Source of the DNA: Schmidtea polychroa
Lineage: Eukaryota
Reading direction: 5' to 3'
Assembly: GCA_044892525.1 (NCBI GenBank)
Contig: CM097885.1
Span: forward strand, 32,116,001-32,180,000
Length of the DNA stretch: 64,000 nt
Shown: one piece after another, positions 1 to 33,051 of the stretch
How positions within the stretch are numbered: the first letter of the stretch is position 1
Layout: every line of letters starts with the position of its first letter
The notes under the pieces: generated by a model
The model's input: the letters and a program-made list of their open reading frames with translations, nothing else
Told to the model about the DNA's origin: nothing
The model's database searches: none
Program-made: the position numbers and the translations under genes

Positions 1-1080
1 TCGACCTTCCGGTTGACTGGTGGCGGTTTTTGGAATTGATTTACATCGTGCCACGTTTACGTATATTGGCCTGGTGAATGGATTATTTACCAATTTCACT
101 CTTACATTGGTTTCGCCTACGAATAAGATCTCATATGGTCCTTTTCCGTTGCGTTGTAACTTTTTTGTGGTTCCTGGAATTAATTCCGGGGTTTCTATCA
201 TTACCCAATCACCTGTTTGAAACGTATGTTGCTTCACGTTTTTCTTTCGATCGTGTAAATCTTTATAACTTTCCTGGTAGAACTTGATATTTAATCCCGC
301 AGTTTCCCAAATTTCTTGCATTCTTTCCTTGAATTTCGTAACATAATCATCGATCTCCATATACTGCGATATCGGTGGTTGGTATTCCAGGTCAATTGGC
401 ATATTACATTCTCTTCCGTACATTAATTTGAATGGGCTCATTTTCGTTGATGCGTGAATCGACATTCTGTACGCCATAAGACATAGGTTTATGTATTCGT
501 CCCAATCTCGTTGGTGACGGTCGACGTAGTTTGATAACATTTGTATAAGTGTTCCATTAAATCTTTCCGTCATCCCATTGGTTTGAGGATGATACGGTGA
601 TGTTCTCAATTTTGCGATTTTGAAATAGTTCGTTACTTCGCTCATTATCTCACTCATAAAATTAGTTCCCTGATCGGTTAATATCTGTTTTGGTGTTCCA
701 TATCGGCAACATATCTCTTCTACCAAAATTTTTGCGATTGTTTTAGCTTTTTGGTCTGGCATCGCGAATGCTTCTGGAAATTTCGTGAGAAAGTCGGTAA
801 TCACTAAAATGTAAATATTTCCTTTATCTGACTCTGGTAGTGGACCAACTACGTCCATGGATATCATCGTCATCGGCTCTATTGGTACCGGCATTGGCGT
901 CAAAGGTGCTTTCCATTTCGATCCAGTATTTTTCCTGGTCGCACAAGTTAGGCAATTTTTTACCCATTCGGTTACGTCTTCGGTTAACGTAGGCCAAAAA
1001 TATTTCTGTTTCATTCTTGCTAACGTCTTTTTCGATGACATATGTCCTCCCAATCTCCCATCGTGATATTGCGTTAACAA
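1..1080 (-). other. Integrase domain (HHCC, DDE core, GPY), truncated by window edge
   Basis: YHDGRLGGH...CLTC, ISMDVVGP, LTDQGTNF, SPYHPQTNGMTERFNGTL, GKGPYEI. Confidence 0.95.
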
Positions 1081-4000: not shown

Positions 4001-7000
4001 CAAGCTAACATTTGTGTTAATATTACCCTGACTATCTGAATTATGAGTATGATCCCTAATATCCCGGCCATCATTTGTCCAAAAACTAAGAATCTTCCCC
4101 ACATTGCTTTCATCATGTTTGACGTGGCTTGTTGAAAATGGTCTGGCGATAGTAGCAGTTCGTAATTCGGGCCTGATTGATAATTTGTTCCCCCCGTTAT
4201 TGTAACCATATTTGACAAAATGGATTCTCGTCTGGCTGGGAAGAGTACGTTAAGTCGTGCTGTTTCTAGATCTTCTGGGGAATACATACCACCGTTTGAC
4301 ACGTCTATAGGTTTGAAATCCAGCTCTGTGGCGAGTTCTATTAATCCAAATTTCTTGGGCTCCTCGGATATGGTTTTTCCCGGTAACATCATCCATTTCC
4401 CATCGGGCCTTTCATACAAAGGTCCGTATGCATTAGAACAGTTAAAGAGATTTGGGTAGAAACCCACTGGATTCATAATTCTAGTGACTGGTTGGACGAA
4501 TCGATTTTGTCCTTTATAACGGATTTCTAATTCATTTGCACATCTCTTTTCGGGTAGTATAGATTTTTCTGGCATTCGTGCATACGTCTTGGTACACTGG
4601 TATGTGTACATTACTTCTCCTACCATTCTACCAAAATGTCCATCCGGTAATGGGAGTGATGGCATCGTGTTATCTGGGTGCGTTATCGCAATAGCTAGCT
4701 TTGTTTTCAATATTTCTTTATTCAATGAACACTCGTTTTGTATCAGATCGTAATATACTTTTTGCAAGGTCGTTTGTCCGCGATGAAATAGAAAATCCAT
4801 TTTATTATTTGCATATAAGTATAGTTTTACGTCCTCCGTTGCTATCTTTCCCACTGCTCTATCGATTATTTGTCTCGACATATAGATGCCTGCGTAATTG
4901 GTTTTATATACTATACTGTCACATTTGGTGGTTTCTTTCTCTTTGATAAATCTCATACCTAGATCTGGATCGTCTGTGATTAATGCTGTTGGTGTCTTCT
5001 GCGTTGAAAGTCTCTTTTCTCTGGGAGATGGTGGCATTGGTTTTCCATTTCGCATTCTCACCCTGTCGTTTCCATCCTCGTCGTTCTCGTTCTCATATAT
5101 TTCTCCTTTTACTTCATTGAACAAGGCACTTTTTAACAGTTGGAGTCGGCATTTTTGGGTATTAGCTTCATAGATTATAGTTGATACTCCTGTCTTGCAT
5201 ACGTTTTCTGTAGCTCTACACGCTGGGTTGGTCTTCATTTGGTAATTATTTGCGTCAAATTGCGCTTCGTATTCTTTTAATTCAACCGTATAAGACTCGA
5301 TCACTACTACTCCCGATATTACCTCGCCTCGGATCGTATACGTACCTCCGTTACATGACCCATCTGATGATTTTACTTTTCCGGATACGTAAACACTTTC
5401 GGTTTTAATCATTCCAGTTTGTCCGTGAATCGTCACTCCGTTATGCATTTTTAACGCTCCGGTTCTAAATAGCTCTTTACAGTCCTCTCGTTGTATTGAT
5501 ACGATTTCTTTGTCCAGGCCGGGTAGTATAAGAGTCGAATACGAATATTGTCCACAGTAATATGCGAGTACCTTTTTTGATACCACGCATTCCCTTGCTT
5601 GCGTTCTGATGAAATCTGATTCTTGATATACATGGTAAGTAACTTTTGTTCTTACTATGTCTAATTTGTTGGGTGATGCTTGTCTGCATTCTTCTATGTC
5701 TCTCAACGAGTATTTATCTCTCATTATCATATTATCACAATCGTAGATGGTAAAACCTGTTGCTCCACTTGTGCACAACATCCATATCATCATAGTCATC
5801 ATTAACGAATTTATCGATGCTTTTCGGCTTGCTGGGTCTTTCATGGGTAGTTCCCATTCTAGTTCATTCAACAACTTCTTCAATCTAACTTGCATCGACC
5901 TTTCTTGCTCATTTTTTCGTGGCGCTTGTATAAGTCTTTTCCATCCTCCGGCACGAATAATATGTGGTTCAATAGTATTCTCTATGATTGAAACGGTCAT
6001 TTCCACATGATTTGCAAATTGTTTATTTGGTATTTTCCTCGCAGCTAGTCCCATCAAATTATACATCAAATACGTGATTACCACTAGATGATGTTCGTCA
6101 TCATTTGCATTTGTCGTGAGCAGTTCAATCACTCTCTTCGTTTCATCCCAATCCGTTTTGGTGGTTTTCGTTTTCTCTTTGATTAACTTTGGGATTATCC
6201 CCGAAACGATGTGCCATAATTGTCTAGCTTCCGTACTGGCTACTTTCCGTTGCCACAAACGTCTAAGTTGTGGGTTTGTTATTATTAACATATCTTTGAT
6301 CAATTCTCGTATCCATTTTTCTCCTCTTTCGATCGTTGGTTGGGCTTCCTTTAGATCCCATACTATTTTATCCAATTTTTCTAATCGAACTTGCCCTTGT
6401 TCTTGCTTTAATTGTTCTTTGGTTTTGAACTCAGACTTTTCTCCTTGTTTCTTAGGTCTTCCTTTTGCCCGTTTTTCCATCATCGTTCCGGCTTCTCTGG
6501 TATTTTCGTAATTCGGATTTCTTTCGTTATCCGTTCTGGGTAATGAGCTATCGTTATTTTTTAGCCACTCATTCCATTCATCTATTATTTTATCGGTTTG
6601 ACCTTCTGGTGTTACTTTCGTTGGTTCTCTTTGCTTCTGGAATTGTTCATCCGTTTCGGTTTCCGTAGTATTGTCGATGATTTCTTTGATGTTTAGTTTC
6701 GTTGGTTGTTGATAACTCGTTGATGGCTGGTTATTAGTCCACATTTCGGCTCCTGTCGGCCATCTTACTAATAGCGGTGATCTTTCTCCTGGTTCATCGT
6801 CACTATCTTCCAGGATTATCTCTTCAACTTCTTCAGTTTCATTAGATTTACTTGGTGCTTTGTTCGGACTTGGAGTACTCAAACTGCCTTTTGTTAGTTT
6901 AGTAATTTCACTTTTCCTTTTTAACGGCTTTCCCAACGTTTCTGCCATTGTTAACACATTTGTCTCTTCCAATCTCATGGGTGTTATTCCGACGTCTGCA

Positions 7001-7683
7001 TTATCGTCTAGTGATTTTCCGAATAGTTGCAGATGGAATGGAGTTTCATATGCTAATTTCTTTTTTAATTCTCTAATCTTTGTTGTTGGATGCACCTCTA
7101 GTTCCTCGATGCTCTTGTCCGGATACTTGATTCGGATGTGATACCTCTCCTGAGTGTCTTGTGCCCATTCCTGATTTCTCCATTTTCGAATAATTTGTTC
7201 TAGCTGTTCTGGATACCATTCATTATATTGCCGGTATTCCTCTATTGCCTTTGCCATTCCTCTCAGATTGTGGATGTTCTCTGATGTCTTTAAGATGATG
7301 TTAGCCAACGCTACTACTTGGCGTTTTTGATTTTTCGCTCCCATTGCTAAGATATCGCCTAATTGTTTATATCTTTCTTTCTCTTCTCGTTCTCTTGCTT
7401 CCGTCGCTTCCTCGCCGTCCATATCAGCATATTCCCGTTCCTTTTTCCTCATTGCATGAATGTGTCTCGCTTCATTTTCGCTTTCTGATGTGACATCCGT
7501 CTCGCCTTCGTCATCTGATGTCTGTTCCCTTGCTTCCTCTTCATATTCTGGAGGTTCCTCTTCTTCTTCCTCCGATTCACTTTCTGTCTCACCAATGTCT
7601 GTTTCTACGAAGATTCCTTTCCGGATTTCCCATTCCTTATTTTCTGCATTCCACACTCTTTCCCATTGGGTTCGTCTGCAGGA
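1..7683 (-). CDS. ORF2 polyprotein (>=2561 codons, no stop in window): UBL - Bcl-2-like - signal peptide - class III-type Env - TM - protease - RT - RNase H - integrase
   Basis: Manual translation finds no stop from 7683 to 1. It is in the same frame as ORF1, directly after TGA 7684-7686. First ATG at 7452. Absent from the ORF track, probably because it has no stop in the window. Confidence 0.93.
1360..1740 (-). other. RNase H domain
   Basis: PFLLATDASGYAAGAIL, NYSVTEREALAII, TTDHQPL, ANANADCMSR. Confidence 0.95.
1930..2640 (-). other. Reverse transcriptase domain (Ty3/Gypsy type)
   Basis: SPWQFPVVMVKKKDG, RFCIDYRKLN, LDLKSGYWQI, MPFGLTNAPASFQR, YIDD at 2146-2157. Confidence 0.97.
3070..3420 (-). 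other. Retropepsin aspartic protease domain
   Basis: AMIDTGAN (DTG at 3367-3375) and downstream CIIGTDL. Confidence 0.93.
3997..5817 (-). other. Envelope glycoprotein resembling chuvirus G (class III-type fusogen), with internal signal peptide and TM anchor
   Basis: Signal SINSLMMTMMIWMLCTSGATG|FTIYDC. Motifs YSLRDIEEC, ECVV..YYCG, DGSCNGG, LYLYANNK, ECSLNKEILKTKLA, GEVMYTYQC, FVQPVTRI, NGGMYSPEDL, VLFP occur in the order typical of chuvirus-like glycoproteins. About 14 Cys; TM about 3997-4100. Confidence 0.85.
5932..6321 (-). other. Divergent Bcl-2-fold-like domain
   Basis: BH4-like WIRELIKDML and BH2-like IIENTIEPHIIRAGGWKRL. HHLVV..GGW spans 51 aa, the same as GRIVA..GGW in human BCL2. 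NWGR of BH1 is absent. Confidence 0.55.
6940..7143 (-). other. Ubiquitin-like domain 3
   Basis: YHIRIKYPDKSIEELEVHPTTKIRELKKKL...LQLFGKSLDDNAD matches the ubiquitin pattern LEV.P...I..K.K...L..GK.L.D. No C-terminal GG. Confidence 0.7.
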
Positions 7684-10605
7684 TCAGGTGCTTAATTTCG
7701 TGATTTTTCTTTGTAGTTCTTTTTCTTTTAACCATTGTTGGTGGATTTCAATTATTTCTGTAGATTTTTGATATAACGTTTTCATCCGGTCTCGTATTTC
7801 TTTTTGATAGATTACATCTCTTGTTCGAAATTCATCCATTGGTACTATCCTGATGATCTGATGATTGTCCCACATACCCAATTCGCTTAACGAGGTGTCG
7901 TCTTCCGCTCGTAATATTATTTTATCGTACATCATGACTACATCATCCACCATACCATCACTACTTTCGCTACGTACCTTTTCCGTTATCTCTTGGTTTA
8001 TCTTTGATACCAAGTCATCCACTGTACTCCGATTGCTCATTTTTATTCGTCGTTTTTCTTCGTTCGGTAACCATATGGTTATTTCCAACCTCTGTGGCTG
8101 GGTTTCTTTTAACCTTCCATATTTGTGGATCAAATTTATGGTTCTCCAATCACTCATCCGGAGCATTTCTGTATCTCGCAATCGGCTCATTAGTTCGTAC
8201 ATGGCTGGGGCTCGTCTGGTGATGAGTAAATCCCAGTTGTCTTCTACTTGTTCTTGAATTTGTTTGATCAGCTTATCCAGGTTTCGTCTCAGAGTACATT
8301 GTTTTATTTGTTCTAATTTCAATTTGATATTAAAATCATATTCTGCCTTGGCATCTTTAGCCCAATCGTAAAGGTTGGCTGGTTGTTTTTCTTTATGCAA
8401 CTTCAGTATTTGCGTTTCTCCTGGCCATATTAGTGCATCTACTAAGTGCATATCTGGTTTGATCTGTTCTCCTTGGTATTGATACAGATATTCTTTCTTT
8501 CTCGAACTTCCCAAATGTTCTCGTATCCAATCGAAAAGTTCGTCGGTGACTGTACTTTTGATCCACATTCTTTCAAGTCCTCTGCTCGTTCCGATTTTTA
8601 TTACATACCGCGTGGTATCGGCCTGCTTCATTTTTTCCATATACTTTTTTATAATTGATTTTTCCTCGTTTGGTATTAAATCTTTCTCGTTTCTTTCCAA
8701 TTTCATCACTTTTTGCACGAATCGCCTGAATGGTATTACGTCGATGAACTCTTGGTTTCTCACTACCACCGGGAGTATTTCGGCTACCTGTTTTATCGCT
8801 TCCTCCCTTGCTTTTCTCAACTTTATTTCGATATCCTCGTCTTCACTTCCACTTGTTATCTCGCTTTCGCTTTCTTCCTCTTTGATTTCCCCTTTTGGAG
8901 GTTCGCTTATTTCATTTAGCTGTAGTATTTCTCCACCCAAACTACTTACATAGTCTTTTTCTTCGTCTGACGATGCTACATCTTTTGTCCTTTTCATCAT
9001 ATTGATTTGCAAATTTCTCATCCTTGGTACTCTCTTTAGTTTCTTTCTTTCGAATATCGTTGTTTCTTCTGATTCTAATTCTTGTAGCATTTGGTGGTTT
9101 AGTTGACTGGTTTGTTCCTTGCTCTTGTTATTTTCATCTTCTGTCTCAGCTTTCGCTTTATTATGTTCTTTTTCGATTTTATCTTTTATCTTTTTCCAGA
9201 ATATTTTCTGAATTCTCTGGTTTCCTTTTAAAATCGTGGTTGAATTCTCTGTTTTCATTTCCGTTGTTGTTTCTGTTACCTTTTCTGGTTCAGTCATGGG
9301 TACTACCCTTGGGTTTTTCCCGTAATTGTAACAATACTGGCTTTTCATGTCTTTTACTAACTTCATCATATTAATTCGCAATGGTTGTTCTTGTCGTTGT
9401 TGGTTGCGTTCTTGTTTTATCTTCTCTTCCTCGGCCTGTAGTCTTTGCCATTCTTGTACATGTTGATGCACTTCATAATTGTTGAGATTTTCGGTACTCC
9501 TCATCATACGTATATTCTGGGTTTGTTGTGGTGCTGATTCCGGTCTCGGTCTCATCATTTGTTGCATCATCTGTTTCATCTGCGAGATTTCCTGCATAAC
9601 GTTCATTTGTTTTCCTTCGCTAGGGTTACTTTGTCGTTGCGGATTCGCCATATAATTATTATTTCGCTGTGGTGGTCGTTGTTGTTGGCCCCTTTCTCGG
9701 CAATCTCTGGAGATGTGACCTGGCTGACCACAGTTAAAACAACCTCTCAATTGGCATACATTTTCGGTATGTCCACGCCGTCCGCAACGATTACAATTTG
9801 AATTTCTATAGCAATCTCTGTCCCAGTGTCCTGGTTTACCGCATGTTCGACACTGCTTGTTATTGTTCATATTTCGTCGATTATTAAAATTGTTCTCATT
9901 ATTTGGGTTGCTACGATTACCATTATTCCCATTTGATCGTCCTTGTGGTGGTTTGAAAATTTGGTGCGCTCCTGGTATAAATTGATTCATTTTCGGTTCT
10001 TGATTGTTGTTATCTCCGTTATCCGCTTTCGCTATTGCTGTCGCTATCCTCCCATCCTCTTGCATAATATTCATTTGTGCTGGAAGGTGGAGCTCGCATC
10101 TTGTAGCCCAATCTATGGCTTCCTCTAATGTTTTGCACATTTGACAACCTACTGAGGCTCTTACTTCTTCTCGGCGTAATCCCTCTATGAAATAACCGAT
10201 CAGATTTTCTTCGGGTAATTTTCCATTCATTGCTTTCTTCGCTATTCTCCGCAATTCACTGGCATATAATGTTATCGATTCGTTTGCTCTTTGTTTCCTA
10301 TTTGCTAGTTCGCCCAACGCCTGGTTGATTGGCTTACTGGCTCCGAAGGTTTTCTTCAGGAATGTTTTGATATCTTCCCACTTTTCTAATTTCGTATCTC
10401 TCTCTTTAGCTTCTAAATATACTTCTAATGCGCTATCGCACAAAAACAACGGCATCCTTTTACTAATTGCTTCGGGTGTCCATCCACACACAGTGATATA
10501 AACTTCAAAATTAGTTATGAACGTTGCTAGCTTGTTTGCATTTCCATTGAACGGTTCTCCTCGGAACTTTTCTTTATACTCGTCGGTTTTTACGACATTC
10601 GTCAT
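7684..10605 (-). CDS. ORF1: Gag (capsid plus three CCHC knuckles) extended by acidic/charged linkers and two ubiquitin-like domains
   Basis: 973-aa ORF with retrotransposon-gag-like N-terminus. CX2CX4HX4C knuckles at 9811-9852, 9754-9795 and 9700-9741. Frame stays open without ATG up to 10950. Confidence 0.92.
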   Translation of the reverse strand: MTNVVKTDEYKEKFRGEPFNGNANKLATFITNFEVYITVCGWTPEAISKRMPLFLCDSALEVYLEAKERDTKLEKWEDIKTFLKKTFGASKPINQALGELANRKQRANESITLYASELRRIAKKAMNGKLPEENLIGYFIEGLRREEVRASVGCQMCKTLEEAIDWATRCELHLPAQMNIMQEDGRIATAIAKADNGDNNNQEPKMNQFIPGAHQIFKPPQGRSNGNNGNRSNPNNENNFNNRRNMNNNKQCRTCGKPGHWDRDCYRNSNCNRCGRRGHTENVCQLRGCFNCGQPGHISRDCRERGQQQRPPQRNNNYMANPQRQSNPSEGKQMNVMQEISQMKQMMQQMMRPRPESAPQQTQNIRMMRSTENLNNYEVHQHVQEWQRLQAEEEKIKQERNQQRQEQPLRINMMKLVKDMKSQYCYNYGKNPRVVPMTEPEKVTETTTEMKTENSTTILKGNQRIQKIFWKKIKDKIEKEHNKAKAETEDENNKSKEQTSQLNHQMLQELESEETTIFERKKLKRVPRMRNLQINMMKRTKDVASSDEEKDYVSSLGGEILQLNEISEPPKGEIKEEESESEITSGSEDEDIEIKLRKAREEAIKQVAEILPVVVRNQEFIDVIPFRRFVQKVMKLERNEKDLIPNEEKSIIKKYMEKMKQADTTRYVIKIGTSRGLERMWIKSTVTDELFDWIREHLGSSRKKEYLYQYQGEQIKPDMHLVDALIWPGETQILKLHKEKQPANLYDWAKDAKAEYDFNIKLKLEQIKQCTLRRNLDKLIKQIQEQVEDNWDLLITRRAPAMYELMSRLRDTEMLRMSDWRTINLIHKYGRLKETQPQRLEITIWLPNEEKRRIKMSNRSTVDDLVSKINQEITEKVRSESSDGMVDDVVMMYDKIILRAEDDTSLSELGMWDNHQIIRIVPMDEFRTRDVIYQKEIRDRMKTLYQKSTEIIEIHQQWLKEKELQRKITKLST
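7837..8091 (-). other. Ubiquitin-like domain 2
   Basis: LEITIWLPNEEKRRIKMSNRSTVDDLVSKINQEI...VVMMYDKIILRAEDDTSLSELGMWDNHQIIRIV; beta-grasp UBL pattern (TV..L...I, L.D...LS.LG). Confidence 0.72.
8392..8613 (-). other. Ubiquitin/SUMO-like domain 1
   Basis: RYVIKIGTSRGLERMWIKSTVTDELFDWIREHLG...YLYQYQGEQIKPDMHLVDALIWPGETQILKL; SUMO-like F/Y.Y.G.QI pattern. Confidence 0.55.
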
Positions 10606-11976
10606 GATTGGTGTTCTAGATTCGTCGGTTTCTTTTAAATTATCCGGTGACGTGACTAAATTTTGGGCTGATAATTCCTCGGTTGACGTTGCTAAACTAT
10701 TAGTGATGTCGGACAGACTTTCTCTGCTTCGAGATCGACTAGGGGTGTATCCGAGATTTTCTTGGTCAAATATAGGTACTTGATTGGTTCTTCTTGATCC
10801 TTGTGATATTCCTCTTTGATGTTTAATAGATCGTCCTCTTTTGAGTTGTTGTAATTCGTCTCCTGAAAATAATACGTCTCCTGGCTTACTTGAAGATCTA
10901 AGGTTGGGTTTATCCGTGATTCCTTTCTTACGCTTCTTGGTAATTAGCGGCTACTGAATTGGACGAGTTCGGTTCTGATTGTGTTTCCTTCTATAAGTAT
11001 TCTGTATGAATCTGCTACTGTGATTCTGAGGAGATTTACTAGTCCTTGACAGATGGCTGCTAATACTATGAGGTTGAATATATCGATGATTCGTTCGAAG
11101 TTGGAGATGTCGCTATCTGTATCTTCTTCCGTTCTGGAGTCTTCCGGTTGCTGTGTCTCTCGGTGCGGGTTCTGAATGGATTTATTCTTGGTCGATTGTC
11201 GATTTCTTCGAATTCCTTTTGTGCGGGTTCTGGATTGTCTTGGTTGACTGGATTGGTTTGATATCTAAAATGAAAAAATGATCTCGTGTTGCATCTGCTT
11301 ACACGACTTCATCATTCTTTCAACAACATTCGAACACAGACACCTTTTAGGTTCTGTTTATGCTTCCCCTATTTTTTATGCAATTACTTCCGCGGGTTAT
11401 AATCTCCCATCAGCCCGAAATTTTCGTCGATTTTAAATTATCTATATGGGGTAGTAACAATTATCTATAGAGTCGTAATAATTATCTATTTTTATCACTT
11501 ATAATAGGAATAGGTCGTTGTCGGTCACTGCTTATTACCCCCCTTTCGTTTTCCTAGTCCTTTTTGCGCGGTTGTCGCTGTTTTACTTTTCGTATTTGCT
11601 ATTATCTCACTCGGTTCTACTCTGGAACCAATAAAATATATTCTCCCGCTTCGCCCAAAAAAGAAAAATATTATTCCGTAGAGTTTCTCCACTTCACTGG
11701 GGTCCCTTTAATTAGTTGGTTACTTTCCTCTTTACTCATTATCATCGTTTCGCCTATTCTTTATTTTCCATTATCTCTTTAGTTCGTTTCCTTCTTCCCT
11801 TTCCTTTTTCCTTATAATCTTATTATCTTTTCCACGAGCTCGTTTATTTCCTCTCTAAACTCAAATTTTCGTAATTACCTTCTATTTGTTCTGGCTAGCT
11901 TTACTATTCCATTTCACTAGTAATTTAAATATTATCTCATTGTAGCTTAACTGCTATCTCTCGTTTTTCTAGGCCT

Positions 11977-12352
11977 TTACGACTGGCTGGCACTATTCAA
12001 CAGCTCAATCTTCTTCCTTCTGATCGGTTGGACTATTCAACAACTCGATCTTACGACTGGCTGGCACTATTCAACAGCTCAATCTTCCTCCTTCTGATCG
12101 GTTGGACTATTCAACAACTCGATCTTACGACCGGCTGGCACTATTCAACAGCTCAATCTTCCTCCTTCTGATCGGTTGGACTATTCAACAACTCGATCTT
12201 ACGACTGGCTGGCACTATTCAACAGCTCAATCTTCCTCCTTCTGATCGGTTGGACTATTCAACAACTCGATCTTAATATCTCCGAACTGGCTGGACTTTT
12301 CACAGCTCAGTTTTCGTTTCCCTTGACCGGCTGGACTATTTTACAGCTCGGC
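11977..12352. repeat. Tandem array: 4 x 74 bp (each two related ~37-bp halves) plus 2 degenerate halves
   Basis: Units start at 11977, 12051, 12125 and 12199. Shared core GGYTGG(C)ACTATTCAACARCTC. Confidence 0.95.
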
Positions 12353-12911: not shown

Positions 12912-13394
12912 TCATTCACCATAGTAGACCATATGAGTTTCTTTTATCTCGTGCTTACATATCGTGCATCTTGTTAGCTCGTTCCCGCATTCTTCGCAGT
13001 GACTGAGGTGTCCACACGGCAAAAACAGTACGCGAATAGGACGAAGTTTACAAGCAAGGCAAGTTCGTAGTAGAGTCAGTTTTTCTTGTATTTTCCGCTC
13101 GATTGTATCTGATATGGTATTTAAGGGATCTTTTATACGTTGATAATCAAGATTTAATGCTGGGTGGTTCAATCTCTCTTGATACCATTGGTACACGGTT
13201 TCCGGGTTTACCTTCCCATCTGGGTGACTTAGTCCTGTGGCTAATAACATGTGGTTGGGGACGGCTGGTGTTTGCCCGATTGCTTGTAGTATGATGTTAA
13301 TTCTTTCTCTCTTTTGTGTCAGCGTTTTAAGGGAGTCATTCTCGATGTTTATGAAGTTGATTAGTTGTTGTATCTGATCTATGAATTCCGTCAT
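12912..13394 (-). CDS. IAP-type RING (C3HC4) E3 ligase without BIR domains, possible UBA-like segment
   Basis: RTCLACKLRPIRVLFLPCGHLSHCEECGNELTRCTIC has C-x2-C-x11-C-x-H-x3-C-x2-C-x6-C-x2-C spacing as in XIAP/cIAP. LLATG resembles ILATG of the cIAP UBA. Splice acceptor lies 2 nt before the ATG; AATAAA about 120 nt after the stop. Confidence 0.85.
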   Translation of the reverse strand: MTEFIDQIQQLINFINIENDSLKTLTQKRERINIILQAIGQTPAVPNHMLLATGLSHPDGKVNPETVYQWYQERLNHPALNLDYQRIKDPLNTISDTIERKIQEKLTLLRTCLACKLRPIRVLFLPCGHLSHCEECGNELTRCTICKHEIKETHMVYYGE

Positions 13395-13692
13395 GTCTAA
13401 AAAAAAATGTTTCAGTAGTATATGACTTCGTTTCGTCGGACATTCTCTTTTCTAACTCGTTATCGTTATTTTACTTTTATCTTATTTCTCCATCATTAAA
13501 TTTGCTTTATTTATATTTTTAATTTTATTATTTTCTATTCGTGATTTATAATAAGATTCGATAAGCATTAGTCAATTTGCACTCGCTAACCCATTGGAAT
13601 CACTAACCCCGGTGAGTTCACTCTATTCGACAGAAATTCACTCAATAACATCCTTATCCAGTTTACACTGACCAATGGAAATTTCAATCTAT

Positions 13693-13710: not shown

Positions 13711-14282
13711 AAAATTATGTTGCGGGTACACTACTCGGATGACCCCTTTCTAGTGCAACTTTAGTCTAGAGGATGAATGCCACCTCGATTTCGCCCATCA
13801 TTTATTTGGTCATCACCGAGCGGGACCCGTACATAACTTACACTCCAACATAGCACCCGTGAATTGCTTCACGTTGGAACTGTGCTATGCCGGCGAGACG
13901 CCAGTAAGCAGGTGAGCCAGCTCCTCCGGACTACTCCTTACTGAGGCCTCGACTTCCCAACCCTGACTGCCGATAGAAGGACTTACGTCTACTCATTCCG
14001 TCGCCCCATCGCAATGTTTCTAGCTGAGTTTGCCAACTGACTAATGCTCCTCCAAGTTTTATGACTCTCAATACCATTCACCAATTTCAACTCAACTGTC
14101 CTAAGATGAACACAAAAGGAAACGTATGCAGACAAAATGGTTTATTATTAAGATTATCACACAAATATACCTAACACCTATACAATAAAATTTACGACCA
14201 CCGGAAAAGAAACAAAGGTAAAAATGTTATCCGACAATGTTCGGGTCATTTCAGTGAACGAAGACTTGTTACGGAGAAGTTC

Positions 14283-15032
14283 TCATTTCTCCCACTCTGA
14301 GTCTGCCAACAGATCTTCCAAATCGAAAAATTCAGAGGCATTTTCCTCCCAGGAAACACCAGCGGCGGAGATGATTCGCCCTGAGATCACTGATGCTAAA
14401 TCGATTGCTGCAGGAGGGTTGATGACTTTGATTAGATGATCCGACGATTGCTGGTTCTGTTTGGCGGTTACGCGTTCCCGCTGTTTCTTTTTGCGTTCGG
14501 CTCTCGATAATTGCCGACGCTTTGGCTTCGATGCCGTTGGATTGGTCGGGGGTGTTGCAGAGGTAGATGCCATCACAGGTAACGCTTTACTGGTTCCGGT
14601 AAAGATGACTTCTGGTTCTTTAGGTGAGAGCTCGGTCTCTACGCACCCATGGCAGGACTTTCCGACTGGAGAAGAAGATCCGCCAGAGATATCATGATGT
14701 GCTGGGAAAAGATTACTGGCTTCATTAATTGGGATCTTCGCGATCCTCCTTGTGGTTGCTGCCTGAACGTATAATTTGTGCAGCGCCTCCGACTGCTCTT
14801 TTATCAGGCTCCTCTGCGCCCGACTCTCGGAAATCAACGCGTCTCTACAGTGCTCGCTTCGATGCAGCTTCTTCTGAGCCTCCTTCATCTGGGTGGGACT
14901 AAACCATGTCCCCTCCAACTCATCTATCCTTCTCTTATGCTTTCCGATTTGGGCCTGGAGCTCTTTGATAATTGAATTCTTGTCGGAGCAAGGAAAACAA
15001 GGTCGAAGAACGGTCTTGGAATTTGGCAACAT
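14283..15032 (-). CDS. LTR-encoded accessory protein ORF-A (249 aa): CxxC + coiled coil, second CxxC, basic patch, acidic aromatic tail
   Basis: The probable start is MLPNSK (ATG 15032), 10 nt after a strong acceptor (AG 15043-15044), not the track start at 15107. The N-terminus is conserved in the copy at 32462 (17/21 aa identical). Confidence 0.75.
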   Translation of the reverse strand: MLPNSKTVLRPCFPCSDKNSIIKELQAQIGKHKRRIDELEGTWFSPTQMKEAQKKLHRSEHCRDALISESRAQRSLIKEQSEALHKLYVQAATTRRIAKIPINEASNLFPAHHDISGGSSSPVGKSCHGCVETELSPKEPEVIFTGTSKALPVMASTSATPPTNPTASKPKRRQLSRAERKKKQRERVTAKQNQQSSDHLIKVINPPAAIDLASVISGRIISAAGVSWEENASEFFDLEDLLADSEWEK

Positions 15033-17424
15033 TTTTGAGTGACTGTGGAAAAAAAAATGAAAAATGAAAATAATTAACTCAACTGGAGTGTCACCATCTG
15101 ACCCCATTCATACTTTACAGATCATAGACAAAAATATGAGTTTACCAGTCAAGACAAGTACTACTGCACGATGGATTCTCATACCTTTTGGGTCTTTGAT
15201 TATAAGAAGATAAATCGATCAAACCCGATTCCGTACACGGAAAGGAAGGTAATACTATTAGTGAGAGAGATTCTAGATCGATGAAAAAGGATTATTTAGT
15301 TAATCCGCTTGAAGTCATTATTTCACGTTTACCGAGCATCGAGTTACATTGTTGATTTCTCCCCCCGTACGAGTGATTTTGATGAGTGTATCATATACTG
15401 GGGTCGAGTGACTATCTATGGAAAAGGGGTCCATAATGTCTGTTGATTAGTTCCTACAGGATAAACGGAATGCTATTTAAATTTTTAATTATTTATTCAT
15501 TCTCTCTAATTACTCACATATGTGTTTTGCCTGGTTTAAATATTATTTATTAATAATATTCGACATTAATATTAATGATAATTATGTCAAAAATGACATA
15601 ATTTCCGTGCCATTCATTCTACGATAATAAAGAGAGAATAATCATAATTACGATCGGGTTTAGCACTAAAAAATATTATCTTTATGATAACTGAGCACGG
15701 TATCAATGTGAGCTAGTAGCCGACCATTCCTACTAGGTAGATAAGGAAATGTCAGCCCGGTGGTTGACTATTAATCCAGAGCGGTGAAATATGATACCTG
15801 TCGGTAGTCTAATTGGTTAACAGAAATTCCATCTGGTATGTTCGTCGGATTTTTCCTGAGTAGAGGCGTGTGTGACTTTGCCCACTGTACTTGGCCACTA
15901 GGTGAGTCTGTACCTGGTGACGCATGCAGGGTGTGCTTTCACACACTTAATTATACTACAATTGTAGGTGTTAAATGTTTGCAAGATGTCATTTTCTCAG
16001 AATTTTATCTATCGCGTAATCACTCACAATTCTCCTGCATATGGCGCTGATTTACTAATTCTCACCGGATTATTGGAAAAATTATAATTATCTGTATTGC
16101 AAATGTTGGATATAGCTTGCTCCACGGGTGGATTTTTTCGTCTTTAATTCCTCAAACCTAGTTTATCGATCTACTCTCTAAGTGCTGGAGGATTTCTACC
16201 TATCCCTGCTGGATTGCCAACCCCACGAAATACTGGAATTTTATATTTAATTAACAAGATCATCGGCTAACTTGAAGAAATATATTTTTCGTGGCTCGCA
16301 TTGGTTGCATTTTTCAATTCTAAATTATTTGATGCCAATAGTTTATGTGGTTATGATAATTAATTGTATGTAACTCCTTTTATATAAAATTCAAAAAAAA
16401 TTATGATAGCGAATCATTTTATGTAATTTGAACTTTTATTTGGAACAAACTCGTTTTATGCAATTCTGAATAACTATTTGGATTAAATCATTTTACCTGG
16501 TTCTTCCCTTTATTTACAAGCAGTCATTTCGAGTAAACCTAATACTTGTATGAAGCAATCTACTTTGAACTCCCTGGCAACTATGTCTTTAAGAGAACTT
16601 TTAGATGAACGGAATAACAGTTCCGCAGGTCATAGGCTAAAAATTGGTCGGAACAGATTCTGAGTGAAAAGTATGAACATCGAAGATATGTCACAGATAG
16701 CCTCACTAAGGTTTGAACAATTTTTGACACACAACTTACATTGATGATAGAGAAAATTTAGGCTTAGAAAAACCGATATTCGAAGACGATATTGTGACAC
16801 TCTCAATCACTACGCGAATACATCAAAATTTTCCGATTCCTTTATTACATATCTTTGTTTTCAATCACTACATGACTATCAATTTCGGCCCCCATTTACC
16901 TATAGATTTTAGTCGCACCTTCAGCGATTGGACCCGTGAAGAAGCCCTCACATTTCGGCCCAATCTAGCTGCGTGATTGAAATACCCTATGTCCACCGGT
17001 GGAGCTCCCGAAGGCACCTCACACCATGACATAGAGTATCTCAACGCCACGTTTCTCGCCAAATTGAATGGTCTCCAATAATAATTCATAAAAATTAATT
17101 CATAAAAGATCGAACGAGCAAATCATTTATTATTAAGCAAATTATTAATTTAAATAAAGTATTCTAATATCAAACGAAAAGAAAAACCATTTTTTAAATT
17201 AAGAATATTATTGAACTATACGCATTACTTAAAAATCCAAACTAAGCAATCAAAAATCCTTACCGAATGATTGATACAAGTATGGGCTGAGTCGAAAAGG
17301 GTACTATGTCGAATCAGTTAATGCTCGAGTGTCGTCTAGTTCTGTAAAAATCTTTTGAATCTTGGAATTGTCCTCGTGAGTTATCGTGCGTTAGTTGCTG
17401 GAGTTCTGTTCCGTCGTAGAATAG

Positions 17425-17561
17425 ATTTACCTATTGAGGTGGTTTGATTAACAGTCACAGTTATTTAAATTTCACTTACCTATTGAGGTGGTTTGATTAA
17501 CAGTAATTGTTATGTTTTTAATGCCTGCTTATATATTAATTTTTTGTTTGCGCGGACCAAT
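17425..17561 (-). promoter_or_regulatory. LTR promoter: inverted CCAAT, TATA box and downstream splice donors
   Basis: ATTGG 17557-17561, TATATAA 17529-17535, GTAAGT at 17479 and duplicated GTAAAT at 17430. The solo copy has the same spacings (ATTGG 30955, TATTTAA 30981, GTAAG 31036). Confidence 0.7.
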
Positions 17562-18523
17562 TAGAATTGAGTACCGCTTTATTTTATTAATTTAATTTAT
17601 TTTCTTTGTTTTCGAGTTATTTCTTCTTACTTTCTTTATTAAAATTATGTTTTTATTTATTTTCCTTAATTTTCTTAGTATTTACTATATTTTACGTTGT
17701 TTTCTGTCATTCTATTGTCTTATTTTAATTTTTCTCATCTTTATATTTTTGTTTTAATTCTTATTTTCTAATTATTGTTTTTCTTATGTTTTATTCTATT
17801 TTATTTGTCAATTTATTTGTTTTTATTTTTTATTTTATTTTAGTTCAGTTTCCCTAATTCCCAACTACCCTTCGACTCAGCCCAACATATCTGTTACTTG
17901 TAATTGTTACATAATTAAATAAATTTTTGCAAAATCATATATTTTTTACAGAAAGTACCTATACCTTGATATAAGATAGGTTCCTCAAATATATAGAAAG
18001 TAGGAAAACATTTAACCACGATAATCAAAATTTTTATAATAAAAAATATTCAAAGTGGACAATGATTAAGAGTCTCATTTTAAATATCAGAAAAGAATTA
18101 AGGATGTTTCCGAATAAATTTTTTATGTTGACATTACCAATTATTCAATAAATATATACGATTTTAAGTTAATTTATGGTTTTTTTAGAATTTGTACCAA
18201 AAATTGGTAAAAATTTAGAAAACACATTTTTCACAAATAAATATCCAATCTTCATGATAATTAGATAATTATTAAATCTAAAGTATGAAAATGAGTTATT
18301 ATACGTCGTCATCCTTATTTAATTTCATTTTGACCCTTATTTAATGTCTTTTTTACCTTTATTTTTTGTACTTTGATTTTAACCCAGTGCTACAACAATC
18401 TTACTATTTCACACTTAGTCAGAAATTTTTTATCGTTCAAAAATGTTATATTTTTTATCCAATATTAAAACAAAAAATTACAAATTTACAAAATCTTTAT
18501 TCTAAACAGTAAAATGATCGCTG

Positions 18524-20216: not shown

Positions 20217-21393
20217 CTATAAGTTATGATATAAAATGTTAAATATAAATGATAAAAAATTAAGTAATAGTAATAATAAATACCTATATTTAAATAAATA
20301 AATATAACATAAGTTAAAATTATGTATTATTTAAACATTTTATTTGTATATTTCAAAATATTATTTTAATTTTGAAAAATGAAATTAAATTAAGAATAAG
20401 GTAAAATTACATCCAATAAAAAAAATTTCAAAATATAATAGAAAATATAGATTTTATAATTTCAAAACTAAACAAAATAAAGCGACAGCTATAAATTATA
20501 AAAAAAATCATTTAGTAATTCATTTGAAGTTAAAGGATAAATTTAAAGTTCAACAAAAATAAAAATTTTGAAAAATAATTTAAAATTACATAAACAATAT
20601 TTATAACTCGAAACATTAATTCACAACATTCTTCTCTTCTTATAGTTGAAACTTCGTATAGGTGGACGATATGTTTGGAGATTTTCAGATGATGTCATTT
20701 TTGGTTCAGGATCACTTGGTTGAAGCATTTTATTTATTACTGTATTTTATTTATGATGTAATATTGTCGTTAAATTTCCAGAGCTCTTCAATTATTTAAA
20801 TTGCTACTGTGAGGCACAACACCAACAATATTATAATGTAATCAAGCAACGCCCGTTACTAACGTTGGAATGGTGCAGCTTGTGTGAAACCAGAAACAAA
20901 GTTGAGGACGGTTTTAAAATTCATTATGTTCTCTGTCTTAAATCAAAAATATCAATAATTTTTATTATTAGTCAGAAATTTGAATAAAACTTAGGAAAAT
21001 CTGATAAGTTTTATAAAAATTTTAAGGAAAATAATTCCAAAAAATTTTATATTTTTCAAATGAAATTAAAAATTCTACAAAAATTCGATGATAAATAACT
21101 GTTACGGATAATCGAAACTAAAAAAGTAATTAAAACGAGTTAATTGATGAAGTTAGCCATCGTGGGAAATCCATCCAATAAGAAATGGAGAATCTATCCA
21201 AAAATTTCACTTTTTTATCCCATTTTATGACCATATTCTTATCGAATTGAATCGCCAACAAGTAAGTAGTTTATAAATTTTTTGTTTTGAAAATCTATTA
21301 ATAATTGTACTAACATGAAAACATTTTATACATAAATATTTTTAAATTTATTTTTATTTGGTCATTCTTAAAGTTTTTCGTTTATATTAAATC

Positions 21394-24300
21394 CAGCGCC
21401 GGTTTGAGATAATTATACGCCCCAGGCGAAAATTATAAAAAGCGCCCTATTTTAAAAATTAGGTACAAAAATTATGATAAAATAAAAAAGTTTAACAAAA
21501 AACAATCCATTTATTACTTTATTTCATTTTTTTCGATTGACATATATATAAAAAAAACAGAATTTATAAGAATGATTTTTTCCTGGCTTTCATGTCTGCA
21601 AATTTTTCTATTGCTGCCTCCAAATTTAGGTTTGCTACAACATTATTTTCAATTGAAATAATGGCCAAATTATTCAACCTATCTTCCGTCATAGTAGATC
21701 GCAAATACGTTTTTATTAGTTTTAATTTACTAAAACTTCTTTCACCACTCGTAACACTAACAGGAATTGTTACGAGGATTCGTAAAGCCACCCACAGATT
21801 TGGTACTGTACTTTTCAAATTATTATCATTGATAAATTGTAAACATATTAAAGGATCTTTAACATCATCTGGTACCAATTGCTTCAATGATTCGATTTCC
21901 TCGCACAATTCTATTCCATTTATATCACTACTGGCCTCATTTGTTAATTTCAGATGTAAATCTTTGCAACTCTTCAGCAAATCACAACGATTTTTATTAT
22001 TGTGAATATTGAACAAAAAACCCCACGAATCTTCGAAATCTTTCATTTGCTGAAACCTTTCTGATATACATATCAACGATTGATCCAGCATAACATTAAA
22101 AACATGATTTTTATAATATTTTTCTGGGTCATTTACATCTGGAGTTTCATCGTCACACTCATAACTAAATTGTTTTTGTCGCCTTCTGATTCTTACAGCT
22201 TTAAATTGTGCGTTCACGTTTAATAGCGCAGCGAGATCTTTGGCCGATTTTAAAGCATCAGAAAAACCGGAGTCTCTATAATTTTCTAGAAAAATCTTAC
22301 AATTCCGAAGAAGCTCGATGGCGTTACTCATATCAAATGTAGCTTTTTGCATGGATTTGCTGACAATATTAAATTTTGACAAAAGTACGTACCAGGCAGA
22401 TAATGTTAACAAAAACTCGAAATCTTCTATTTTTTCAGATAAAGAGCTAGCTTCTGAAACAACTGCAGCATCTAATATTGTGTCTTGCAACTCATTTAAT
22501 GCGTTTCTAATTTCCGTGATTTCAAACATAATTGCTTTAATGCATTCGATTCTACATTCCCACCTCGTTTCACTTAAAGGTTTAGGATTTAATGATTTAA
22601 TATGTTTTTTCAATATATTCCATCGTCCAACAGATGCAGCAAACAAAGTATAAATTCTTTGAACATATCCGAAAAACTTTATGCACATTATTGAAGAAGA
22701 AACACTATCACCAATTAGTAGGTTAATTGAGTGACAACCGCAAGGCATAAAAAACGCTCTTGGATTTTCTTTTAAAATTCTAGCTTGCACTCCTTTAATT
22801 TTACCTTTCATATTAGCGCCGTTATCATATCCTTGGCCTCTACAGTTTGCTAATTCCAAATTGAATTCTTCTAAACTTTCACAAATATCATCATATAATC
22901 CTTTTCCAGTAGAATCAAAAACTGGTTTAAAGGATACAAAATGCTCTTTTATTTCCATATCCTCAACATCATAAAATCTTAACATTATGGAGAGCTGTTC
23001 GATATGGCTTATGTCAGGTGTGCAGTCTAAAATAATCGAAAAATATTTCGATTTACGAACAGAATCCAAAATATGACTTCTTGTCATATCACCAAGTGTA
23101 CTTATTAATTCGTTTTGTATAGTTTTTCCACAATAATGAACATGAATTTCTTGTGAGACCACCCTGCGCAAATGCTCATTTAATGGTAAATCAAATTTTC
23201 CTAGAAGTTCAACAAGGCCTAAAAAATTTCCATTATGCGGAACAAATAACTTATCACAAGAACCCCGAAATGCTAAATTATTTTTTGACAAAAATAATGT
23301 TATGTTTATTAATCTTTCTAGTACCTTTTTCCAATTATATTTTTCTTGGACTATCAAAGACTGCAAATTCTTATCAATAGTTTTATTGCCCTTTAATCTT
23401 AATCGAGTTTCTATCCAGTTTTTTTCACATTTTAAATGTGAAACTGACCGTTCGTGCATTTTCAAGCTGTCGTGAATATTTTTCCAATCCCATAAACCAG
23501 ATTTGGCTAGATTTGACCTACCTGATGGATCAAAAAGTTTGCAAAAAAAACAAAATACAGAATTTTTGGATTCTGAATAGTGCAACCATTTTCTTAGGAA
23601 TTTTTCACCATTACTTATTTGACGATAAAAAAGCGAATTGGAAAAGCTTCGATTATTTTCATCTCTTGGATAAATATGTTGTTGATTACACCTTTCTTCG
23701 TTTCCATATAAGTCAGTTACAACTATATGGTCAATTTCCGTATGTTTTAAATTTTGTGGCCATAGCCCAATATCATTATAATTTAAAATATTTTCAAATA
23801 CAGAATGAGTTGAATCACAAGGAACAATTATTTCAGTTCCGTGAGAAGACATTAAATTATCCTCATTGATAATATTACAATTTTCAGCTTCTGATGACAC
23901 ATTACCTATATCGTCCTCTGAGCTTGAAGATGTTGACTCGAAATGTTGATTATCATCGGCTACTGATTTACTGGAATTAAAATATTTCAATATTTTATCG
24001 TGCTTATCAGCTTGTTGTTGTCTATTTATTTTTCGTTTCCGATATTCATACCCACTCAATTTTTTTGGTGGCATCTTAGCTATGGCATAAATTTATATAA
24101 ATATATTATATATTTTCCAATATATTTTTAAAAAATGATCTTAATCTTACCTTACCTCTTATATATTTATATTTTTAAAACAGAATAGGAATACAAATTT
24201 AATTTGAATAAACTGCAACAACACAACACATTAGTTAGACACTTGAAACAAAAAAATTGTTAAAAAAAACTGGTAGCTATAGATGTTAATTTAACTCGCA

Positions 24301-27009: not shown

Positions 27010-27215
27010 TCCTCTTGATACCCGTTGAGTGATCAACGTTGGTACTGTATCAAGAGGGTGAGTGCTCGCATAAAGTGAGCGTATCATTTGGACTATATTT
27101 GTCAGACACTCCTTTGGGTTCACGGACTGCCGATAAAAGGCCTGTTTCCGATTTAGATTGTTTTGCTGATGGGCTTGTTCCCGATCCTTTCGCAGATTCT
27201 CTAGAAGTCTGAACA
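27010..27215 (-). CDS. Possible host exon, unknown product
   Basis: GC-richer open frame (FRLLENLRKDREQ...) directly after a polypyrimidine-AG acceptor. No recognisable domain and no partner exons established. Confidence 0.3.
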
Positions 27216-30602: not shown

Positions 30603-33051
30603 TGTTGGGCTGAGAAGTAAGATAAAAATGAAGCATGAAAAATGTAAATAAGTAAAAATTGAAAACAATAGAAAACAACGAAAATATACCTCAAAAAAAT
30701 CAAATTAAAATAAATATATAAAATAAGTATAGTAATTAAAATGAAATATAGGAAAAATAAAACATAGGATTAAAACAATAAATTAAAAGAATTAAAAATA
30801 CAAAATATCGATAAAAGAAGCAAAATAACATGCAGTTAATAGAAAGAATTTAAAAAATTAATATAAGTACAAGAAAAAGCAAAGAAAACTTAATAAAAGT
30901 AATAAATTATATAAATTAAATTAAATTAAAGAAATTAACGACGCCTCGATTTTGATTGGCCCGCTCATTTCACAATATGCTATTTAAGCACAGCATTGAA
31001 ATAAAAATTTCAATATTTAAATTTTACAAATTTAGGTAAGCTACATTAAGTAGAATAAGTTAATGTTTAAATTTTACAAATTTAAATTTAGAAATCAATT
31101 TACTTCTTCAAATACCCAAATTATACCAAGAGGGAAAGAGTTTAAGAATTACTCAGCAACTTCAAGTGACGAACAAATCACTCGGACTCAGAACGATTAA
31201 CTGATTTAGCGGACTAATTGAAACATCACTTAGAGATTCAGTAAATAATATTTATTATTTATATATGTTACCACGTAAGTGAATATGTAATTTATTATAA
31301 CCATTAAATGAATTTTATAAAATTGGTTCATTTTTCGTTTTTCATTATACATTAATATTAAGTAATTTTTGAAGGTTAAATAATTATCACAATTTTGTTA
31401 AAACCAAAATGGCAAATATTTTTATTTTAACGAAAACAAGTTTTGCAACGATAGATTATGCGCACAATTTTTATGCAGTTCGTATGATTTGTTCGTTTCT
31501 GAATGAGGAGAGATTGATGACATTTGGTATCCAAAAGGCCACGACTCAAGGGACATCAGTTGTTCCTTGGATTAGCAGGTCGGCTGGCATTTCAGTGGCA
31601 TCGCGGTTGAGCGGGTCGATATGTAGGGGTTTCTCTACTGATCTGTCGCCGTTGAGAATTTTCGATATGATAACAATCCATAATAATTTTGCGAACATAA
31701 AGTCAGAGATGTTGAAGTGAGCGCAATGATTGAGAGTGTCTACAGGATATACATTATCTTCTTTACCAAGCCATTCACTTTGATTTCACCTACTTCGGAC
31801 AAATGAAGTTTTCCTTCGTAAAAATCCGACAAGCAGCACGATTGTGAGAATCAGGACTCTAGATTGAATTAGGACGTAAATTGATTGAGATACGCTACAT
31901 CATAAAAAGGATCGTAATCCACACGCACGATATCCACACTTCTGTCATCATCGAGAGAGATAGTCCGTCGATCATATATAAAGGTACTCTAGGACGTATA
32001 TTATTATAAATCTTTTTAATGGGGTGAATCGGGTGGTGCACGAACATATTTTCGCATGTTAATCTCACGAGACAGTTTTCTCGGCACACACTTCAAGGGC
32101 AAGACCATCGGTCATGAAATTGTTAGCACATTGACACTCGATACGATGATAGTGAATACGAACAAGCATTCAATTCGAAAAATTAAACATAAAACGACAC
32201 CTAATTTTCTCCGAAATAATTTGACGACATTATCAACCACCGAACAAAATCGATAAAATCCACTATATTCACGTCCACCGATGTTCGATCATTAGATTCG
32301 ATGAGTACAGATCTCTGTGCATAACCGGTAATCAGGGTTAGTATGAGCTCATCAGATTTTCTATGAGTATCCCAGTGGAAAGCCAATCGCTCGGTCAAAC
32401 GTTCTAAATCAGTTTATTATCAATGTATTAATGCCGGTTCATCTTTTTTTCTTTGTAGAAAATGCACAATATTCCTTCTACGTCGGCGGTACTCAAGCCT
32501 TGTTTCTCCTGTGCCGACAAGAATTCGATAATTAAAACGCTTCAAGCTCAGTGTATCGCCTTATTAGACTTTTCTCCAACGCCTTGAGTATCCTAATTTG
32601 AGCATGTGGAGTAAATCCCGTCATTTTGATTTTCTTTTTCGTTCTGTTTATTTGGTAAAGTATAATATACGTGTAAATGTGTCCAGAGTTGTGTCATAAA
32701 TTTTCGTGATATGACCGAGTGATATAGGGCTGGTTTGAAAGTGGCGTGTTTATCCGAAAAACCGGACAAACCGATCAGGTTTTTTAACGAATGACGTAAG
32801 ACGTAAGTCCTTTCATCGGCAGTTAATAGAGGAGTGAGTCGAATTGTAGCAAAGGAGTAGTCCTAAGATAAGGGCTCGCCTGCTTCGCTGAATTCCGCCA
32901 TCATGACACAGGACCAACATTCTGTAGGGCGTGGGTGTCATGGTGTGAGAACGATCCGACTTGCGCCCAACAAGCGGAGTTGCGTAGAGTGACTGACCAT
33001 CATTCCCTAGTAGCCAAATGAATTGATGTTGACCTAGTCGACAACCCAACA
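30603..33051 (+). mobile_element. Diverged, internally deleted solo LTR of the giant Gypsy family (2449 bp)
   Basis: TGTTGGGCTGAG...CCCAACA with TAAT on both sides and no PBS after it. Shares promoter, donor, acceptor+ORF-A start and U5 blocks with 13718-17887. Confidence 0.8.
32462..32587 (+). pseudogene. Truncated ORF-A homolog
   Basis: MHNIPSTSAVLKPCFSCADKNSIIKTLQAQ versus MLPNSKTVLRPCFPCSDKNSIIKELQAQ. Homology ends at 32551. Acceptor AG at 32457-32458. Confidence 0.85.

Follow-up and report, generated by a model that had tools for sequence, protein, structure and literature searches.

The element and its genomic setting

The window analysed here, a stretch of 64,000 nt from Schmidtea polychroa, is part of a 272-Mb contig in an A/T-rich genome of 781 Mb with four large contigs. 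It carries an LTR retrotransposon of about 30.4 kb in total, read on the minus strand, for which the following parts were located (coordinates are those of the window):

13718..17887, minus strand: 5' LTR of 4.17 kb with TGTTG...CAACA ends and a GATA 4-bp target duplication, from LTR comparison
12912..13451, minus strand: RING finger protein, the first internal ORF (Pfam zf-C3HC4_3, E 4e-11)
7684-10950, minus strand: Gag (Pfam Retrotrans_gag, zf-CCHC)
1-7683, minus strand: env-like fusion glycoprotein-PR-RT-RH-IN frame (Pfam Monjiviricetes_fusion, RVP, RVT_1, RT_RNaseH, rve)

The 5' and 3' LTRs are 99.6% identical and lie 26,193 nt apart. At the boundary between gag and the env-like-pol frame the window copy has one in-frame stop (7684-7686, minus strand), and in the sister copy L183 a reading frame with the same start is open over at least 2236 codons. 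Planarian Burro/GYPSM1 elements are described as exceeding 30 kb, with multi-kb LTRs, an in-frame env-like glycoprotein between gag and pol, and RING, MATH or BCL2-like accessory modules, in a report whose available text deals with the proteins and does not mention LTR RNA structure, primer or plus-strand origin (PMC6431247). The element in the window spans more than 25 kb from LTR to LTR, has multi-kb LTRs and shows the order gag, env-like glycoprotein, PR-RT-RH-IN; because its Gag and env-like-PR-RT-RH-IN frames match the layout given in that text, it is a Burro-type giant Ty3/gypsy retrotransposon. A related group of elements encoding a MATH domain is called Burro1-like here on the strength of the published description, as far as it is available (PMC6431247), rather than of reference sequences.

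Several other features were noted in the same region. A 274-codon ORF without a Pfam match lies within the LTR (14283-15107, minus strand) behind an acceptor-like pyrimidine tract at about 15043, and is possibly a U3-encoded accessory gene. The leader between the RING ORF and gag contains 74-nt tandem repeats (11903-12346), and elsewhere in the window are a hAT-type transposase (21564-24092, minus strand), a Tc5/DDE transposase (41964-43283, minus strand) and an F-box protein with an Arf-like tail (33311-34309, minus strand).

A domain of three RNA hairpins close to the LTR 3' end

Within its 5' LTR the element carries a first copy of a structured RNA domain, and three more copies were found in the window:

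14141..14146, minus strand: AATAAA with a U/GU-rich tract after it, a likely signal for poly(A) addition, from sequence
13965..13989, minus strand: module 1, a short hairpin with a 7-nt loop on a 3-bp stem, from the alignment
13894..13951, minus strand: module 2, a covarying stem of 12-15 bp with, close to the tip, an asymmetric loop in which one Y faces CAC
13845..13893, minus strand: module 3, an extended version of the hairpin first described, from covariation
13874..13877, minus strand: fixed CCAA in the internal loop of module 3, complementary to the anticodon-loop UUGG of tRNA-Pro(UGG)
13826..13839, minus strand: 5' arm of P4, a closing stem predicted in seven of eight folded 5' LTRs
13712..13726, minus strand: predicted 3' arm of P4, from folding, made of the LTR end and the 7-nt spacer ahead of the primer-binding site
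13710-13693, minus strand: primer-binding site (PBS), an 18-nt exact complement of host tRNA-Pro(UGG), from sequence
32799..32951, plus strand: domain copy 2 (modules at 32800-32824, 32840-32897 and 32899-32945), in an older LTR ending at 33051
27005-27149, minus strand: domain copy 3, of the MATH-domain (Burro1-like) group (covariance model R1, 46.6 bits, E 1e-9)
20836-20967, minus strand: decayed, distant fourth copy that retains module 3, the 3' half of module 2 and CCAAC (model R2)

A preliminary description of this DNA had drawn two 41-nt hairpins, at 13849-13889 (minus strand) and 32902-32942 (plus strand), and both are present with the positions and letters it gave. Its outer stem CAUAGCAC/GUGCUAUG does change to CAUGACAC/GUGUCAUG by two compensatory pairs, four of the five inner-stem pairs are kept in the second copy, and CCAAC and GG are common to both. 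The two copies alone amount to weak evidence, because the copy 2 hairpin folded by itself reaches a z of -1.44 (17 of 200 shuffles equally good) and its minimum free energy structure lacks the proposed inner stem; for the copy 1 hairpin z is -3.83, and none of 200 shuffles folds equally well. Comparison of the two LTRs as DNA gave 13846-13998 as the top match outside A/T-rich sequence (66% over 159 nt, E 7e-11). Both hairpins are the third module of a three-hairpin RNA domain of about 150 nt located near the 3' end of the LTR.

In module 1, the loop has UU at positions 1-2, A at position 5 and C at position 7 in 31 of 31 representatives, a constancy partly forced by the search pattern, and its stem takes the forms GCC/GGC, AUC/GAU, ACC/GGU and GUC/GAC according to family; these stem pairs were not significant in the tree test (E 1.9-3.1). 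The stem of module 2, absent from the preliminary description, bears a conserved one-by-three loop. In module 3, an outer stem of 11 bp and an inner stem of 6 bp flank an 8x1 internal loop, and the loop closed by the inner stem is variable. The loops of modules 2 and 3 are separated by 27-30 nt in all 31 representatives, and some 35 near-invariant positions are spread over three separate loops.

Copy 3 is far-diverged from copies 1 and 2 and had not been noticed in the preliminary description; model R1, whose match to it spans 27003-27163, was built from copy 1 and family 2 only, its own family not being included. The fourth copy scored 16.6 bits (E 0.0016) with the broader model R2. The same LTR has a second strong hairpin pair at about 16920-17050 (minus strand; -69.7 kcal/mol over 160 nt), which has a 14-nt word in common with the 3' arm of domain copy 2; many diverged contigs stack on 16908-17074, so this pair may be conserved between families.

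Covariation across the Burro families

DNA searches for three families returned 1253, 626 and 2971 candidates, 40 of which were scored per family. When these families were excluded, a 16-nt pattern gave 1366 exact matches (control: 0) and a module 3 pattern 180 matches (control: 4); copy numbers therefore rest on DNA and pattern searches. The 155 domain records obtained formed 41 clusters at 90% identity, from which ten were dropped for deletions or heavy decay (L035, L055, L057, L133, L138, L153, L155, L167, L176 and L178), leaving 31 with a mean identity of 0.53. Alignment A2 combines 30 of the 31 (L071 omitted) with four sequences from two further families, 34 copies altogether, and these 31-34 diverged copies stand for about eight family groups. 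Conservation of the loops is partly forced by the search patterns, yet the copies retrieved by each pattern keep the other motifs.

Covariation was evaluated with an R-scape-like procedure (G-test with background correction, and a null in which substitutions are redistributed on the tree). Ten of the 46 proposed pairs reached E<0.05 under the two-set, tree-aware null, four in module 2 and three each in the outer and inner stems of module 3; these E values are somewhat generous, because the null makes no distinction between variable and invariant columns and the motifs served as hand-placed anchors for the alignment. A blind all-against-all scan found two of 18,554 column pairs at E<0.05, both within the stems of the modules. 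In a structure-blind MAFFT alignment of the 34 copies, 83.4% of 1343 cells were paired, compared with 67.1% after shuffling and 36-40% when the arms were slid, and double changes occurred in 31 of 40 pairs, even though one group is misaligned by two columns in module 2. By module, the same alignment showed double changes in 12 of 14 pairs of module 2 (73% paired), and changes on both sides in 10 of 11 outer and five of six inner pairs of module 3. As G-U cells number 140 and A-C cells 56, the folded strand is the sense RNA. The domain is thus an evolutionarily conserved RNA structure with covariation above phylogenetic expectation. The proposal that two diverged LTR families carry a covarying, selected RNA element close to their 3' end agrees with the covariation in the 34 copies, and the outcome that had been named as speaking against it, a larger alignment without significant covariation, did not occur.

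The upstream pairings of the preliminary description fared differently: they are possible in the two window copies, but are not supported across the 34. The middle pair of the GAC-GUAA-GUC tetraloop hairpin is broken in 22 of 34 copies; UCGGC/GUCGA shows a double change in none of its five pairs; UCCUU/AAGGA is 64% paired and does better when slid by -1; and GAGUAG/CUGCUU likewise finds no support in the 34 copies. Taken jointly, three of these helices have a covariation score that 61 of 500 shuffles reach. No covarying pseudoknot appeared in the covariation scans, and a GG(A/U)A-U(U/A)CC pseudoknot seen in two families was rejected because the scans did not contain it. A long-range stem joining the linker after module 1 to the tail after module 3 was also discarded, its own-family duplexes not being consistently above cross-family ones; the tail pairs better with the LTR end than with that linker.

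Placement relative to the primer-binding site

With the AATAAA at 14141..14146 as the likely poly(A) signal, the domain would fall in U5 of the genomic RNA. The distance from domain to PBS ranges from 92 to 145 nt among copies. The preliminary description had put its element about 130 nt before the PBS, which holds for copy 1, where the PBS lies 139 nt past the hairpin, but not for copy 2, as no PBS follows the LTR that contains it. A PBS for tRNA-Pro was present in 21 of 21 5' LTRs examined, although these copies are not independent, and its 18th base corresponds to the UGG tRNA in 19 and to tRNA-Pro(CGG) in two. The host genes for tRNA-Pro lie in long tandem arrays, of 475-nt units in L228 (contig C1, 130.9 Mb) and of 442-nt units in L264 (contig C3, 142.5 Mb). 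The shared 3' end of tRNA-Pro gave 2164 matches, 616 of them with a non-UGG anticodon pattern, and a tRNA-Pro(AGG) gene did not match the single pattern tried, which does not imply its absence.

When 5' LTRs were folded with the PBS kept single-stranded, the closing stem P4 was predicted in all of the eight but a decayed copy. P4 would join bases 5-10 nt past module 3 to the LTR end and spacer, and duplexes between tail and junction were strongest within their own group in five of six subfamilies. Given the predicted P4, the 92-145 nt between domain and PBS would be looped out, so that a gap of some 130 nt is predicted to shrink to a linker of 5-10 nt. The spacer from LTR end to PBS is 7-8 nt in all subfamilies checked (13711-13717, minus strand, in the window) and lies inside the predicted P4; such spacers are usually 1-3 nt long.

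The junctions upstream of the 3' LTR were inspected in eight copies (L061, about 5200-5250, representing the window element, and L270, L277, L269, L273, L179, L275 and L066). In none of the eight is the 3' LTR preceded by a polypurine tract, the longest purine run within 110 nt being 3-6. Instead, the fixed TGTTGG of the LTR start comes immediately after a conserved block of about 40 nt that is present in all eight and contains a GC-rich stretch and a short inverted repeat. Plus-strand priming of Burro elements may be unusual; a literature search on a missing polypurine tract found nothing relevant.

A possible role in docking the primer tRNA

Among the functions that the preliminary description had offered, primer activation is the best supported, and the tested known ribozyme classes did not fit. 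The reading that we favour, to which we give a little short of an even chance, is that the domain is a scaffold for starting reverse transcription that docks the primer tRNA-Pro(UGG) in the manner of the A-rich loop of HIV-1. Annealing at the PBS would open the acceptor and T arms of the primer, and the closing stem P4, as folded here, would set the domain beside the PBS. The fixed CCAA loop would then pair with the anticodon loop of host tRNA-Pro(UGG), with modules 2 and 3 possibly stacked as a ruler, as their constant loop spacing suggests. Module 1, which is T-loop-like, may contact the D-loop of the primer once its T arm has been melted by PBS annealing, and the D arm may help to open P4 for the polymerase.

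Several observations are consistent with this docking. CCAA is present in 33 of 39 distinct module 3 hairpins, which were found through module 1 and their stems rather than the letters of the loop (the 39 loci themselves came from DNA searches with the loop in the query, or from the module 1 pattern); each of its bases is kept in 37-38 of the 39, and the three preceding bases in 30-33. Within tRNA-Pro(UGG), CCAA has a single complement, the anticodon-loop UUGG, and the codon read by this tRNA is CCA; the domain is therefore complementary to the primer beyond the last 18 nt of its 3' end, over four bases only. The loop of module 1 resembles the tRNA T-loop UUCAAAU, except for the position-4 pyrimidine and the closing pair.

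Against docking, the CCAA match comprises four bases and was spotted post hoc, and roughly 4% of all 4-mers would find a partner in one or other loop of the same tRNA. The UUGG at the border of the PBS is likewise a partner for CCAA, and the invariant GUUGG with which the LTR starts is one for CCAAC. Two of the 21 PBSs have the base of tRNA-Pro(CGG), and the stem pairs of module 1 fall short of significance. In all families that have a PBS, the primer is tRNA-Pro. No family with an altered triplet was found among the 100 of 223 matches listed, in a search that covered the triplet's first base only; the matches listed proved to be decay variants differing by one base, an unrelated repeat, or scattered matches, and the one that recurred was a different repeat without inner hairpin or module 1. 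Moreover, MLV, which is also primed by tRNA-Pro, is reported in the accessible part of one source to need no extra primer contacts (PMC3185550). Primer docking remains a proposal because no family has another primer and because CCAA fits two sites of the element as well.

Two further candidate contacts were set aside. Complementarity of the P4 5' arm to the D arm (30 of 42 copies) was equalled by 28 of 300 shuffled tRNAs, and this fit is due to P4 itself. Complementarity between the LTR start and the 5' end of the tRNA is good in one family and lost in the MATH-domain group.

Alternative explanations

A packaging or dimerisation signal, whose fixed loops would bind Gag zinc knuckles, each other or the 3' end of the genome for encapsidation or circularisation, is possible, if on balance unlikely. 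The leader position and the fixed internal loops on variable stems would suit such a signal, as would the retention of the domain in a half-length family that has gag, and in five of five subfamilies checked CCAAC is complementary to the LTR start over 5 bp. On the other hand, there is no conserved palindromic loop (GUAC becomes GUUC, GCAC, GGAC or UUAC elsewhere), and the fixed unpaired bases are rich in A, C and U, whereas Gag knuckles favour G. Retroviral core packaging signals also lie mostly 3' of the PBS. The half-length family, of about 14 kb and very abundant (L179/L180, contig C1, 5988500-6004500), has LTRs of 1.5-1.7 kb and keeps the RNA domain, the tRNA-Pro PBS and the gag ORF; the copy inspected has no pol-sized ORF, and the family may therefore be non-autonomous.

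We regard as rather doubtful that the domain acts as a T-box-like tRNA reader evolved by an animal retroelement, in which a proline codon in an internal loop would read the primer anticodon and a T-loop mimic would grip the D-loop, so that RNA alone would choose and position tRNA-Pro(UGG). In this element, which lacks a polypurine tract, the domain would perhaps also tie the 5' to the 3' end.

A role in RNA processing or export appears improbable. The domain, or GUAAG in module 1 acting as a splice donor, would suppress the poly(A) site of the 5' LTR or license export of a 26-kb unspliced RNA. A poly(A) hexamer does lie 98-204 nt upstream of the domain in 10 of 15 copies (a count with no chance control), GUAAG occurs in 17 of 31 representatives, and the ORF within the LTR stands behind an acceptor-like tract. 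GUAAG is missing, however, from the MATH-domain group and from the L189 family, both of which have all three loops, and the hexamer distance varies twofold, whereas the distance to the PBS is bridged by the predicted P4.

Against Rfam 15, nothing reached the gathering threshold in the window, in line with the preliminary description, which could name no family. For the window copy and for nine loci elsewhere, no match within the domain came up at E<=10, with ribozymes, IRESs and retroviral leader elements included. A self-cleaving ribozyme of an undescribed class, its three fixed loops docking as the active site, would explain the near-invariant positions spread over these loops, and ribozymes are carried by other retroelements; we consider it very improbable. 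The hammerhead core (CUGANGA) occurs in none of the 31 representatives. An HDV-like P1 partner occurs in 10 of 31 and a P2 with the catalytic C (C-N-R-A) in one, without the nested double pseudoknot or any covarying one, and the hammerhead, HDV-like, group I-like and other Rfam classes were rejected. Strong-stop DNA synthesis in LTR elements needs RNA that is intact between cap and PBS, and a cut there would disrupt it. By eye, module 1 resembles P3/L3 of HDV-like ribozymes. Least credible of all is an internal ribosome entry site or translation enhancer for the downstream ORFs: the leader is long and structured, and compact IRESs have stem-loops of similar size, but the start of the first ORF lies some 450 nt downstream and that of gag some 2.9 kb, no Rfam IRES matched, and no pseudoknot lies at a start codon.

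Novelty and significance

Backed by covariation, the domain is a real RNA fold common to the Burro clade and apparently one not described before. A literature search found no description of RNA structure in Burro LTRs, although the original Burro genome paper or Repbase entries may mention LTR features, and the exact domain pattern gave 0 matches each in metagenome and viral contigs, collections in which flatworms are not expected.

Hardly any cis-acting RNA structures have been mapped in animal Ty3/gypsy elements, and comparably clear covariation is rare among RNAs of eukaryotic mobile elements. The domain offers a defined RNA of 150-300 nt, with a model and thousands of genomic copies, that is suited to in vitro probing, and the model is a sensitive marker for Burro LTRs, including ones that escape DNA alignment. 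Should the anticodon contact be true, it would represent an RNA-only answer to how a retroelement chooses one tRNA isoacceptor, a question left open for tRNA-Pro selection in HTLV-1 in the available text of one report (PMC11251516), and an independent origin of T-box logic. If it is false, the largest known LTR retrotransposons nonetheless have a leader fold that is conserved and new.

Comparison with known systems

The closest parallel to the proposed primer docking is found in HIV-1 and HIV-2, where an A-rich loop in U5 pairs with the primer anticodon loop and a primer activation signal (PAS) is described, according to the accessible part of PMC3185550. As in those viruses, so far as that text describes them, a loop on a stem that would lie in U5, upstream of the PBS, is complementary to the primer anticodon loop, and contacts beyond the 18-nt PBS are proposed here. 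There is, on the other hand, no likeness in sequence or fold: the Burro loop, of 8x1 type, belongs to a domain of three modules that lies 130 nt ahead of the PBS, and the element is of the Ty3/gypsy kind and primed by tRNA-Pro. In Ty1 and Ty3, extended contacts with the D and T arms of the primer and a bipartite PBS are reported in the available text of PMC5371799. The Burro RNA is likewise an LTR retrotransposon RNA proposed to bind the D and T arms of its primer; the Ty1/Ty3 boxes, as presented in that text, are linear complementary stretches, whereas a full 18-nt PBS is accompanied here by a conserved fold with fixed loops.

In Stem I of T-boxes, a codon in an internal loop matches the anticodon and is followed by A, a second conserved loop lies at a fixed distance, and UGG pairs with the CCA end of the tRNA. 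The Burro domain also has a codon followed by A in an internal loop, a second loop at a fixed distance and UGG-CCA end pairing, which here is provided by the PBS. It differs in host and purpose, and neither the AGUA/GAA S-turn of the specifier loop (a single G stands opposite the loop, with no GAA opposite AGUA), nor a K-turn, an antiterminator bulge or an Rfam T-box match was found in it. Conserved structured RNAs of retroelements also include retrozymes, Penelope hammerheads and R2 HDV-like ribozymes; the domain is likewise borne by a retroelement, and their catalytic cores were not found in it. It belongs with the structured leader elements of LTR retroelements.
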